This document shows positions 54,001 to 57,000 of a stretch of 64,000 bases of DNA, one piece after another. Made by a program: the position numbers. The stretch's first letter is position 1. Every line of letters starts with the position of its first letter. The stretch is taken from NCBI GenBank assembly GCA_046570105.1, contig JBKHVI010000006.1:19347-83346 (forward strand), given 5' to 3'. The stretch comes from Bacteriovoracia bacterium (GTDB taxonomy: Bacteria > Bdellovibrionota > Bacteriovoracia > Bacteriovoracales > Bacteriovoracaceae).

Positions 54001-57000
54001 AGCAGGCCTATCGTGCCCATGTTTCGGATGGAGTGACTCTCTTGCAAGGGAAGCCGTTTATCAGTCCGCGAATTTTGGGCCTAGTTGCGGCCCATGAAGA
54101 ATTAGGTCAAGGCCGAGGTTATCCAGAAAAGAAAGATGTTTTCCAGCTGCCCCTGAGTTATCAGATTTTGATTATGTGTAATCGCTATGATCATTTTCAA
54201 ACGCAGCAACAATTGCCCACGATGAAAGCCATTGATGCATTTTTTGAAAAGCACAGTAACGATTTTCCTGACGAACTCATTACTGTGCTGGCGTCTGTCT
54301 TAACTTAATCGAGCGCGTACTCAACCATGAGGCTGTCCCAATTGCGTCCATTCGTCACACGCATTTGCGCGACATAGAACATTTCGGATTGATAAATATT
54401 GATCCAGAAATCATTAACGATCATTTTATCAAAATACTTAAGCTGCCAATAACGAAGAATATTTGTTTCAGTCAGAAGTTCACTGTGGCGATAGATCTGT
54501 ACTGTTTGCTCGATCTCCCATTCACGAATCACTTCCGCATCATTGGTCAATTCCCAGGCATTACGTGTTTGAGCGAATTGAAATTTTAAACCATCGGCTT
54601 TAGCGAGAATAGTAGCCTTAAGTTTTTCACTGAGGTGTGGGTTAGTAATAAATTTCGAACAGATCGCTTGGGTGCTGGTTTTGTATTCACAAATGTAGCC
54701 ATTCGCTTGCAACTGGCCCATGCGTGCTCTCTCTGCTGGGCTTGAAAGATAGAGAGGTTGAAAGTTTTTAAAACTTACGATGCGATATTCGCCTTGAAAA
54801 CTTTTTGTCCCAGACATAATTTGTGGCGCTGACTGTGCCAGTGCATTGAACGATAAAAGCATGAAAAAAACTAATGACCTCATACCCACCTCACTTTCTT
54901 AAAATGCTAAAGGTGGCCTTAGGCGGGCGGCATTGAGAAAAGCACTCCAGTTAAAAAAGAGTTTCACAAAGTGTTTGATTACGAGTGCGCATTGCGGCAA
55001 GTGTCGGAAATAATATAATGAATCTCGCTCTAGATTCACAAGTGATCGTAAACATGGACTTCAGAGGGAAGCGGTGTTAATTTCCTCGAACATTTATACG
55101 GTTACCACTCGGTCATAGCGTTTTGACTATGGCCATAATTATATCCCAGGAGGAACCATGATCTATGAAACGGCGTTCGTCGTGAAGCCCGACGCCACGG
55201 AAGAAGCTATCAATTCCGTAAAAGCTCTCATCGCAGACACAGTTAAAGAGTTCGGTGGCGAAGTTCTCGTCAACGATACTTGGGGCGTAAAAACTTTCGC
55301 TCAACCTTTGGAGTCAGGCCTTCGTAAAGGCAACTTCTTCTACGTTATGTACAAGTCGAAAGGCTCAACTAACGCAGAAATCGAGCGTAAATTCCGCATC
55401 AATGAATCTGTTGTTCGTTTCATGATTGTTAAGCTCGGTGACGATGCTCAACAAGATGAAGTTGTTAAAGGTTACAAAAACCCGAACCACACTCAAGCCG
55501 CTGGCGCCGCAGTTGAAGGCGAAGAAGGCGAAGAGTTGACTGGCGATAAAGAGAAGCGCATGCACTCTAAGCGCCGCTCTTGCTGGTTCTCAGCGAAGAA
55601 AACTTCTCCAGATTGGAAAGATCCTAAGACTTACGGTTGGCTAGTAAACGAGTTCGGAAAAATTTCTCCAGCTCGTATCACTGGTTTGACTCCTAAGTTC
55701 CAACGTCAAGCTTGCGACGCTATTAAGCGTGGCCGCGCGATGGGTCTTATCAGTTACACATCTGGCGACTACGCTCGCTAATCGGGGAAGTGATGTCGAC
55801 TGAGATTTTACTACCACCACGCTTAAGCCTTTCGCGCTTGTTGCTCCTTGGAGCTTCGAGTGTTGTCTTGTGCCTAAGTTATTTGATGGCGCTTTTCACA
55901 CCGTTCCCTTTGGCGATGGCCACTGTGATGTACGGCCGTGTGAAAGGTTATGCTCTCGGTTTGGCGGGGTTCTCAGTTTGTCTATTGCTAGGAGCATTCT
56001 TCTTCAAAGACTACACGCTCGCCGCGAGCTACTTACTCCTTTTGACTATCTCAACGATCGTTTCAGAATCGTCGTTGCGCTCTTGGCGCCCTGTTCGCAC
56101 AGTGGTTGTCACGGGAGTCGTCTTTTTGGGTTTAGTGGTGGCGATTGGTGCTGGTTACTTGCAAGATCAAAATCTCACTCTGCACTCAGCTGTCACTAAA
56201 GAAGTGACTCTTATTCTCGAGCGCTTAACTGAAGCCCGTACACAAGGAATGTTAACTCAAGACTTAAGCGATCTCGGACTTAATCGTCCAGCAGGAGAGA
56301 TCGCTCAAGAGATGATCGAAACGCTGCCTGGCTATATGTTCGCTGGCACTTTCTTTATTCTTTGGGTCAACATGTACCTCGTGTTGAAAGGCCGTCGTTT
56401 ATTGCAACCGGAACAAGATCACACTTTTGATGAACGCACGCTTTTAGACTTCAAAGTTCCTTTTGCAGGAGCTTATTTAGTCGCCGCAAGTTTGGCGCTC
56501 GCCGTATGGGGAGATAAATTCCCATGGGGTACGGTCGCCGGATTAACAGCGTTACGTGCAGTCGGTGTCTTTTATTTCTTTCAAGGTTTTGGAGTGAGTT
56601 TGAGCTTTCTCAATCACTTCAATGTTGTGGGCTTCTTTCGCACACTCGCCATTATGGTGGTGGTGTTTTTTGCTCCATGGTTATTGGCAGTGGTGGGACT
56701 CTTCGATACGTTTTTCGACTTCAACCACAAATTTAAAAAACAGGTTTCAAATTAAGGAGCTTTTATGAAAGTTATTCTGCTAGAGAAGGTGAAGAACCTC
56801 GGCAACATCGGTCAAATTGTGTCTGTTGCTGAAGGCTTCGCACGCAATTTCCTTATGCCACGTAAATTGGCTCTCGTTGCTGACGAGAAAAACTCAAACG
56901 TTTTGAAAGATCGCCAAAAAGCTCTTTCAAAGAAAATCGCAGCTGAGCAAGCTGGTGCTGTTTCTATCAAGGGCAAACTTGATGGCATCACTATCGAAAT

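Follow-up and report, generated by a model that had tools for sequence, protein, structure and literature searches.

To bind the ribosome, the ribosomal proteins S6 and S18 must pair, and the pair represses its own mRNA. In Escherichia coli, the substrate of RimK is the free, Glu-ending C terminus of S6. Eukaryotes make some ribosomal proteins as ubiquitin fusions, which are cleaved and in which the partner is not a ribosomal protein. According to the available text of one study, S6 and S18 first pair as a heterodimer and then bind the S15-rRNA complex (PMC4647458). An mRNA motif to which the S6:S18 complex binds, S6S18CBM or rpsF_leader, is described in the accessible parts of three papers (Matelska 2013, PMC3854524; Fu 2014, PMC3895269; Babina 2015, PMC4647458). 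According to the available text of PMC3854524 and PMC3895269, the motif carries CC(R) in a 3' bulge, 2 to 3 nt upstream of the Shine-Dalgarno sequence, and mutation of this CC abolishes S6:S18 binding; the 3' side of its outer stem holds the Shine-Dalgarno sequence, sequestering the ribosome-binding site. No description of a natural S6-S18 fusion was found in the main text of the literature searched: the words "fusion" and "fused" are absent from the available text of PMC3353972, PMC3854524, and PMC3895269, and "S18" and "Bacteriovorax" are absent from the first 300,000 characters of PMC7203096.

One reading frame encodes S6 and S18

The DNA analyzed here, called the window, is a stretch of 64,000 nucleotides on contig JBKHVI010000006.1 of a Bacteriovoracia bacterium (family Bacteriovoracaceae, GenBank assembly GCA_046570105.1). 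ORF listing of the window showed one ATG-started frame of 207 amino acids at 55158..55781 on the forward strand, and its translation contains no stop codon, in agreement with the preliminary description. A strong AGGAGG lies 5 nt upstream of the ATG. The Pfam coordinates and scores given earlier were exactly reproduced, with Ribosomal_S6 at residues 3 to 92 (73.5 bits; cut-off, 27) and Ribosomal_S18 at residues 148 to 198 (53.8 bits; cut-off, 21). Both NCBIfam equivalogs also exceed their cut-offs, TIGR00166 for S6 at residues 1 to 93 (51.6 versus 42.9 bits) and TIGR00165 for S18 at residues 137 to 202 (55.7 versus 38.75 bits). The assembly from which the window comes has 3.02 Mb in 131 contigs and is 87.8% complete; in it, the S6 and S18 HMMs each match one site, both within the fused frame, and HMM search of the assembled contigs found no free-standing copy of either gene. 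The locus is thereby confirmed as a genuine in-frame rpsF-rpsR fusion, and the data support it as the sole S6/S18 source found in this 87.8%-complete genome.

Beyond the Pfam S6 domain, the bS6 part has a conserved extra helix (residues 96 to 104) and a YK.P motif. The AIKRxR motif of S18, present in the consensus of a 64-row alignment and in the window protein, may hold the counterparts of Lys71 and Arg74 of Thermus S18, which are conserved basic RNA-contact residues according to the available text of PMC3854524. With the separate bS6 and bS18 of E. coli, Thermus, and Bacillus the window protein shares the protein families, the S6 fold, and the conserved S18 AIKRxR, and the gene order rpsF, rpsR, rplI is the same (Table 1). 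It differs from those systems in that the fused S6 has no free C terminus and the fused S18 no free N terminus, and there is no ssb or priB between the coding parts.

The DUF2232 gene holds the same position in 63 of the 65 loci compared and was not found in two of them, G401 and G214; in another related genome, G499, the S18 frame continues into DUF2232. The rplI gene keeps its place in 64 of 65 loci, and the single miss is a locus cut at its contig end. Homologs of the following ORF, which we take to be dnaB from reading its sequence, without a family scan, occur in 63 of 65. The rpsF::rpsR-DUF2232-rplI unit likely ends at the predicted terminator at 57375..57401.

Table 1. Features of the fused locus, numbered along the window
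Feature	Position	Strand	Basis or remark
Conserved 5' leader	55107..55153	+	Alignments, covariation, resemblance to published motif
ACUC	55107-55110	+	Leader alignment
Hairpin stem and loop	55111-55118 pairs with 55127-55134; loop 55119-55126	+	Alignment, MFE fold
11-nt single-stranded stretch, 3' of hairpin, before CCAGGAGG		+	
Near-invariant CCAGGAGG	55146-55153	+	CC at 55146-55147; ribosome-binding site from 55149
bS6 part, residues 1-112	55158..55493	+	Pfam S6, NCBIfam S6, AlphaFold2, Foldseek
Linker, residues 113-137	55494..55568	+	Low pLDDT, variable sequence
bS18 part, residues 138-207, and stop codon (55779-55781)	55569..55781	+	Pfam S18, NCBIfam S18, AlphaFold2, PDB matches
DUF2232 membrane-protein gene	55790..56755	+	Pfam PF09991, 68.3 bits
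rplI (bL9)	56765..57352	+	Pfam L9 N- and C-terminal domains
Terminator-like hairpin after rplI	57375..57401	+	11-bp stem, 6 G-C pairs, T-rich tail; consensus match
Presumed dnaB, tree marker	57462..58808	+	448-aa ORF downstream

The fusion is usual, but not universal, in Bacteriovoracaceae

We took a census of 201 genomes of the family. The fusion is present in 181 of them, and a stop-free match across both parts was displayed for 169 of these. Eight genomes, belonging to 5 of the 69 genera, carry rpsF and rpsR as adjacent but separate genes, the split state being judged at the ORF level or from separate matches in congeners; one (G038) has an in-frame TAA within the linker, three have the locus broken at contig ends, and eight yielded no match. 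ORF listing bore out the fusion in 55 genomes of the family, from 54 genera. The fusion is therefore not universal in the family, as had been proposed from a smaller sample, since eight genomes carry split genes and one an interrupted linker, but the census supports it as the usual state.

The same data bear on the question of whether the single frame could be a product of gene decay or of an error in sequencing or assembly. The genome is a draft (131 contigs, 87.8% complete), and related drafts contain oddities, namely, the TAA in G038 and the S18-DUF2232 run-on in G499. However, the stop-free frame recurs in the 181 fused genomes, single-contig assemblies among them, and in named cultured genera, with full-length matches in Halobacteriovorax marinus, Bacteriovorax stolpii, and a Peredibacter sp., and in the window genome it is the only S6/S18 gene found, with both domains above curated cut-offs. 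Because 148 of the 150 family-genome matches listed span both parts without a stop, the fusion is neither a chance product nor a sequencing artefact; the comparative data refute that reading, and we give it practically no weight.

Fusions occur outside the family

Outside the family but within the phylum, 1 of 32 ORF-checked genomes is fused. This genome, G401 (0.9 Mb; same order, other family), carries a 197-amino-acid fusion. The earlier view that other families of the phylum keep two genes thus fails for G401, and the rule behind it, which takes two separate search hits as a sign of two genes, is unsafe: G401, although fused, likewise yields two matches. Open-frame length of genome-search matches had marked G027, G037, G413, G461, and G392 as fusion candidates; when their ORFs were listed and translated, G027, G037, G413, and G392 each proved to have two same-frame genes separated by stops, and these four were rejected.

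The 481 database homologs reported in the preliminary description were found again, under the names "S6," "S18," and "S18/S6." At least 15 divergent single-chain proteins with S6 followed by S18 are present in the databases, so that the fusion is not confined to one family, contrary to what had been stated. Both PF01250 and PF01084 were detected in all 15 divergent fusions tested, with lengths of 185 to 295 amino acids. They share with the window protein the order of the two domains but are only 26 to 32% identical to it and have unrelated linkers, and for these reasons they look like independent events. Some are found on many contigs or on megabase contigs, such as the P0082 cluster, named Gemmatimonadota/Longimicrobiales, on dozens of contigs; most are singletons. 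The occurrence of S6-S18 fusions in other lineages indicates that the architecture is viable.

Two neighboring genes may have merged by a small deletion

In many families of the phylum, rpsF adjoins rpsR with no gene between them. In the outgroup and in the split family members, rpsR lies 10 to 57 nt downstream of rpsF, and S18 already has an acidic N-terminal extension of 30 to 55 amino acids. The S6 tail and the S18 extension together amount to 69 to 83 amino acids in five split family genomes, and the distance from reference residue 95 to Cys142 is 32 to 52 amino acids in the fused genes (median, 44; n = 56). We propose that the neighbors rpsF and rpsR merged into one gene through a small deletion that would have removed the S6 stop codon, the 10- to 57-nt spacer, and part of the acidic S18 extension.

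The history rests on a FastTree tree and a careful tree of 38 rows. The careful tree gives two state changes (bootstrap range, 2 to 3), and a single change is rejected only at the borderline (p-AU, 0.0425). A quick tree of 65 rows, with four changes, was set aside as unreliable, a constrained search having returned a tree better by 113.55 log-likelihood units. The S6-S18 fusion is real, recurrent, and evolutionarily labile.

A disordered linker joins two well-modeled domains

AlphaFold2 modeled the fused chain with a mean pLDDT of 88 and a pTM of 0.81. Confidence is low only at residues 113 to 137, with pLDDT below 50 at residues 113 to 132 and 134 to 137; block means are 92 to 98 over residues 1 to 110 and 87 to 97 in the bS18 part. 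In view of the pTM, the two domains appear to be confidently placed relative to each other in the model. All 50 PDB matches listed by Foldseek are S6 chains, with TM-scores normalized to the target of 0.59 to 0.91 and, for bacterial S6 chains, an rmsd of 1.4 to 2.4 Å. PDB S18 chains match query residues 134 to 205. No fused chain is present among the 60 sequence and 50 Foldseek matches listed from the PDB, each of which covers one part only.

The linker had been put at about 45 residues, but its disordered part measures about 25; the remainder of the interdomain stretch is conserved and modeled with confidence. Residues 113 to 137 are acidic, rich in Gly/Ala and in Glu, and variable in sequence, and the C-terminal end of the segment is a conserved basic motif, joined in this genus by Met135.

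Being predicted to be disordered, such a Glu-rich linker may be accessible to cutting, and the chain could be a polyprotein that is cut there to supply ordinary, separate bS6 and bS18 to ribosomes, with a Glu-rich S6 end that could be a substrate for RimK. The genome does encode an S6--L-glutamate ligase (NF007764, 423.4 bits versus a cut-off of 331; 298-amino-acid ORF on contig 28), and the equivalog exceeds the cut-off in 33 of 71 family genomes, mostly fused, compared with 1 of 14 control genomes. However, conserved motifs that could act as a cleavage site are absent from the linker's variable part, and RimK does not track the fusion: its top score is in G018, a split genome with an S6 that ends in Asn, and the same search did not find it in split G027, G037, and G040, in five fused genomes, or in G038. 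The fused chain itself ends in Ala-Arg and leaves S6 without a free C terminus, so the RimK substrate is absent from it. The retention of RimK noted earlier is therefore correct as to the presence of the equivalog but uninformative on the fusion, because the enzyme is present in a split relative without a Glu ending and missing from three other split genera. It is not associated with either state, fused or split, and we rejected it as a clue to processing. We know of no processing of bacterial ribosomal protein fusions. We consider cleavage into two ordinary proteins unlikely, and a ribosomal polyprotein cut in the Glu-rich linker, with RimK extending the new S6 end, very unlikely. The chain probably stays uncut.

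A second output might come from Met135, an internal start at which would yield free S18 beside the full chain in this genus. Full-length solved S18 chains start at about query residues 132 to 135, and their residue 3 or 4 aligns at 134 to 135, that is, with Met135. This clade retains a Met at the canonical S18 start, as do all five split relatives; of the fused genes altogether, 11 of 56 have it. In the window gene, a purine-rich AAAGAGAAG stands 3 nt upstream of the Met135 ATG. Next to the AGGAGG that precedes the true start, however, this purine run is a weak match, and free S18 would have no partner, because all S6 carries S18. In the other 45 fused genes the Met is replaced by residues with nonstart codons, so internal starts are no general need; in the largest clade it is Arg, Lys, Gly, or Asn, which makes an S18 start there impossible. 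With the Met in only 11 of 56 genes, most lineages can make S18 only within the chain, and we rejected the idea that internal initiation at Met135 is general. Even for this genus we consider the dual output very unlikely.

A conserved leader resembles the S6:S18-binding motif

We aligned the regions upstream of the gene from 14 close genomes and from 50 genomes of the family. In the 50-genome alignment, columns C59/C60/A61-G65 are conserved at 90% or more. An uninterrupted stem of at least 6 bp from the G of CUCG can be formed in 42 of 49 sequences versus 11% of shuffles, a count biased toward pairing because the script takes the best partner. At stem positions 5 and 6, AT, TA, CG, and GC pairs all occur. 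The MFE fold of the window copy contains the hairpin, with a z-score of -1.27, which is not significantly beyond shuffles. It also contains an outer stem, in which there is an apparent compensatory change between two genera; family-wide, however, shuffles score alike (best duplex, 5.65 versus 5.28; 46 sequences), and an outer stem common to the family is not supported. Rfam gave no match over 54700-55900 at E values up to 1, and a U6atac match over 55040-55170, obtained at E values up to 10, is a chance match (12.9 bits versus a gathering score of 33). Conserved upstream boxes are also seen in the alignment; since a consensus promoter scan did not call them, we claim no promoter.

Compared with S6S18CBM as described in the available parts of the papers, the family leader likewise lies directly before the rpsF start, here the ATG at 55158, and takes in the ribosome-binding site, and it has a hairpin with compensatory changes and a single-stranded conserved CC on the 3' side near the Shine-Dalgarno sequence. 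It differs from that motif in three respects: the near-invariant CCA directly abuts GGAGG, whereas the published motif has a gap of 2 to 3 nt; the outer stem is unsupported across the family; and the putative effector is a single chain. By this analogy, the leader resembles the published S6:S18-binding motif, and its binding by the fused protein is putative.

A probable natural single-chain S6:S18

We regard it as likely that the fused gene is translated into a single bS6-linker-bS18 chain whose S6 and S18 domains would dock as in the normal heterodimer and attach together to the 30S platform, as a single unit, with about 25 disordered acidic residues looping out between them, and that the gene arose by the deletion described above. 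Fusion would fix S6:S18 at 1:1 and make heterodimer formation intramolecular, and the chain probably represses its own translation via the conserved leader hairpin, by analogy with the known motif. We hold the chances to be about even for the stronger statement that the uncut chain is at once the mature platform protein and its own repressor and that gain or loss of the fusion happened repeatedly within the family. As in the ubiquitin fusions of eukaryotes, a ribosomal protein is made within a longer chain; unlike in those, both halves here are ribosomal partners, and the sequences give no sign of cleavage.

For annotation, records differ in whether they label the fused genes "S6" or "S18," and pipelines based on marker genes may miscount them where two proteins are expected. 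The fused lineage represents a natural single-chain version of the S6:S18 heterodimer. It opens the questions of how much the proximity of S6 and S18 alone contributes to cooperative assembly of the 30S platform, whether a preformed S6:S18 pair is enough for autoregulation, and how far the ribosome needs free-end chemistry, such as RimK action on S6 and modification of the S18 N terminus. Split close relatives and the cultured genera Peredibacter, Bacteriovorax, and Halobacteriovorax make the comparison practical.

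A single gene encodes bS6 and bS18

The rpsF::rpsR gene is a genuine fusion of two well-known partners, encoding bS6, a linker, and bS18 in a single frame that follows a strong AGGAGG located 5 nt upstream of the start codon. Pfam recovered both domains, Ribosomal_S6 at residues 3 to 92 (73.5 bits; cutoff, 27) and Ribosomal_S18 at residues 148 to 198 (53.8 bits; cutoff, 21), and NCBIfam equivalogs exceeded their cutoffs at residues 1 to 93 (S6) and 137 to 202 (S18), which bears out the preliminary description of both proteins in one stop-free frame. In the organism's own assembly (3.02 Mb, 131 contigs, 87.8% complete), S6 and S18 HMMs each found one site, both inside the fused frame, and no second, free-standing copy of either was found in this assembled part. 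At 53388 to 54889, the upstream neighbors depart from the usual arrangement: as read from ORF translations, most relatives carry an RNase E/G-like gene at this position.

Searches of the main texts of papers turned up no account of S6 and S18 being naturally fused, and fused proteins are named "S6," "S18," or "S18/S6" in databases.

Features of the fused locus and of related loci
Feature	Location	Strand	Remarks
HD-domain protein	window 53388-54308	+	upstream neighbor
194-aa ORF	window 54305-54889	-	upstream neighbor; no Pfam match
Conserved leader core	window 55107-55153		
rpsF::rpsR fused gene	window 55158-55781	+	ATG start; 207 codons; internal stops, 0
DUF2232 membrane-protein gene			downstream of fused gene
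rplI			downstream of fused gene
Terminator-like hairpin			downstream of fused gene
dnaB			downstream of fused gene
RimK (S6--L-glutamate ligase) equivalog	own genome contig 28, L154:1210-2106	+	NCBIfam, 423 bits; cutoff, 331
Fused gene with linker stop, genome G038 (g38)	L081:4530-5170	-	one in-frame TAA
Second S6-like match, genome G100	contig 102, 427-744 (L106)		33% identity, residues 3-109
Fused locus, genome G401	contig 2, 49300-54800 (L025/L093)		
S18 frame, genome G499 (f14)	L137:888-1700	+	runs into DUF2232

The fusion is the rule in Bacteriovoracaceae but not universal

We searched 201 Bacteriovoracaceae genomes from 69 genera, including the window's own, in six frames and obtained matches to the fused protein in 193; the eight unmatched genomes are 56 to 89% complete. 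Because the frame length given by this search reports same-frame genes with intervening stops as one frame, fused and split states were checked by ORF listing. Both parts were covered without stops, from residues 1-2 to residues 195-207, in 148 of the 150 match rows listed, and the phylum sample search added 21 family genomes with a stop-free match over both parts. Twelve others, with one match each (E values of 1e-55 to 7e-49), were counted as fused from the match alone, giving 181 fused genomes out of 201, 169 of them seen directly. Among the carriers on record are Peredibacter sp. (complete genome), Bacteriovorax, and Halobacteriovorax. Contig ends break the gene in G163, G090, and G124; in G163, from the window's genus, the break lies inside the linker, with residues 1 to 138 ending contig 25 and residues 139 to 207 starting contig 26 (L099, L104). 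Besides its fused gene, G100 has a second S6-like match on another contig, which may be a paralog or contamination (estimated at 2%).

Adjacent, separate genes were found in eight family genomes of five genera: G002 (g3), G018 and G078 (g18), G027 and G084 (g27), G037 and G089 (g37), and G040 (g40). ORFs from one genome per genus show an S6 of 113 to 122 aa, a spacer of 10 to 57 nt, and an S18 of 110 to 130 aa, and the ORF listing gives S18 in split genomes a long acidic N-terminal extension. In G038, the linker is interrupted by a TAA, after which S18 has no ATG, GTG, or TTG at which to restart; an error in assembly, readthrough of the stop codon, or an ongoing fission could each explain this. 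The sister genus is normally fused. The split genomes and the G038 stop contradict the view that every family member carries the fusion.

Fusions occur beyond the family

In the phylum sample, 393 of 401 genomes matched the query, and almost all non-family genomes yielded either a pair of separate matches or a single partial one. Among 32 non-family genomes from 17 families of the phylum checked at ORF level, the genes were adjacent and separate in 20 (f3, f6, f7, f12, f14, f15, f20, f21, and f35), S18 lay elsewhere or outside the fetched stretch in 11 (f4, f9, f11, f13, f16, f21, f23, and f28), and one was fused. Adjacency is not universal in the phylum, since rpsF and rpsR are ~740 to 790 kb apart in the complete single-contig genomes G222 and G264 (f9; L116/L122 and L117/L125). 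In G499, a 75%-complete draft, the S18 frame lacks the conserved C-terminal part and continues into the DUF2232 membrane protein, which looks like a frameshift.

The fused exception, G401, has a 197-aa gene with a short linker and is the sole sampled genome of a second family of the order Bacteriovoracales. At 0.9 Mb (4 contigs, 96% complete), it resembles a strongly reduced member of a group of predators whose genomes otherwise measure 2 to 5 Mb. Its rplI directly follows and overlaps the fused gene, with no DUF2232 gene between.

Beyond the phylum, a search of 1.84 billion representative proteins gave 2,880 matches at an E value of ≤0.001. Among the 150 listed, at least 15 divergent proteins of 185 to 295 aa (26 to 32% identical) cover both parts, and in all 15 the S6 Pfam domain precedes the S18 domain. 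Ten are single-sequence clusters. The cluster of database protein P0082 has nine members at 90% identity and occurs on contigs of several sources (13, 13, and 10 contigs); NCBI assigns it to Gemmatimonadota/Longimicrobiales, the one named taxon among the 15. Its annotation is inconsistent, with a single NCBI record limited to a 64-aa "S18" and the others calling a chain of 207 to 211 aa. Outside this cluster, two of the 15 lie on megabase contigs (2.9 and 3.6 Mb). Since these 15 divergent chains carry both domains, the fusion is recurrent in bacteria, with independent counterparts beyond the order. Thus, of the preliminary description, the fusion itself is real, while its exclusivity to the family fails against G401 and the database proteins. 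The fused gene typifies a single order of predatory bacteria, some members of which lack it.

History of the fusion

The order rpsF, rpsR, DUF2232, rplI, dnaB is conserved across the 65 loci compared, and trees were built from the DUF2232, RplI, and DnaB proteins, leaving the fused gene out. A quick 65-row tree was poor, as a constrained search gave a tree 113.55 log-likelihood units better. FastTree placed g3, then g27 plus g37, as basal in the family and g18 plus g40 within a fused clade. A careful 38-row LG+G4 tree needs two state changes (bootstrap 5 to 95% range, 2 to 3), a count that carries no direction. None of 200 bootstrap trees fit one change, while the strongly supported branches by themselves force only one. 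Keeping all split rows to one side of a branch cost 54.87 log-likelihood units (p-AU, 0.0425), a borderline rejection of the single-change constraint. We favor an early fusion that postdates the divergence of the basal split genera, and then either a single reversal (g18 plus g40) or a second, independent fusion. G401, on a very long branch, falls inside the family in both the FastTree and 38-row trees, and its fusion probably goes back to the event that also produced the family's. Outgroup families have adjacent genes and an acidic N-terminal S18 extension of ~30 to 40 aa; this precondition for fusion is old.

Measured from the S6 core end (reference residue 95) to the conserved S18 Cys (residue 142), the join spans 32 to 52 aa (median, 44; n = 56 fused genes), shorter than the 69 to 83 aa of S6 tail plus S18 extension in five split family genomes. 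This fits a deletion that would have removed the S6 stop codon, the intergenic spacer, the S18 start codon, and some of the S18 extension. Conserved motifs flank the join (VK.YK.P following S6, and a basic [DE]K[DE][KR][KR].F..[KR][KR] preceding Cys-Trp-Phe), and only the acidic, Gly-rich middle varies. In an AlphaFold2 model (64-row alignment; mean pLDDT, 88; pTM, 0.81), the two domains are confidently placed relative to each other, and low confidence is limited to residues 113 to 132 and 134 to 137, which points to a flexible linker of ~25 residues. No fused chain was among the 50 Foldseek and 60 sequence matches listed from the PDB: all 50 are S6 chains (query-normalized TM score, ≤0.45), and all 60 cover one part only, the longest chain having 139 aa.

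The encoded chain and its leader

RimK is present although S6 in the fused chain has no free C terminus; the equivalog-level protein confirms the ligase noted earlier. It keeps alive a processed polyprotein, cut after translation, to which we give a small probability. The RimK model exceeded its cutoff in 33 of 71 family genomes versus 1 of 14 controls. RimK presence does not track the fusion: it scored best in G018, which keeps split genes and has an S6 ending in Asn, and no RimK was found in three other split genomes, G027, G037, and G040.

Residue 3 or 4 of full-length solved S18 chains aligns with query residue 134 or 135, which makes Met135 a remnant of the former S18 start. The five split relatives all retain this Met, as do 11 of 56 fused genes, those of the window's clade, and in the window's genus a minor internal S18 start may operate alongside the fused chain. 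The other 45 fused genes have replaced it, with Arg, Lys, Gly, or Asn across the largest clade. Judged from these sequences, S18 is obtainable in most lineages only as part of the fused chain.

Upstream regions align over ~110 nt in 14 close genomes, and a leader core is common to 50 family genomes, fused and split: ACUC, a hairpin opening with G-C-U-C and closing with G-G-G-C, 6 to 15 unpaired nt, an almost invariant CCAGGAGG, and lastly the start codon. By script, 42 of 49 leaders have an uninterrupted stem of at least 6 bp versus 11% of shuffles, and stem positions 5 and 6 include AT, TA, CG, and GC pairs. An outer stem appears in the MFE fold of the window's copy (fold z-score, only -1.27), family-wide no better than in shuffles, and Rfam had no matching model. 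The published S6:S18-binding motif directly precedes rpsF and combines a hairpin with a 3' bulge, in which a conserved CC(R) lies a short distance 5' of the Shine-Dalgarno sequence (Matelska 2013, PMC3854524; Fu 2014, PMC3895269). The resemblance to that description is good in place, hairpin, and CC, but the CC abuts the Shine-Dalgarno sequence in the family leader and is 2 to 3 nt away in the published motif. The outer-stem, z-score, and Rfam results above also weaken the resemblance. In E. coli, the S6:S18 heterodimer has been shown to be the repressor (Babina 2015, PMC4647458). We infer that the single fused chain would repress its own translation via this leader.
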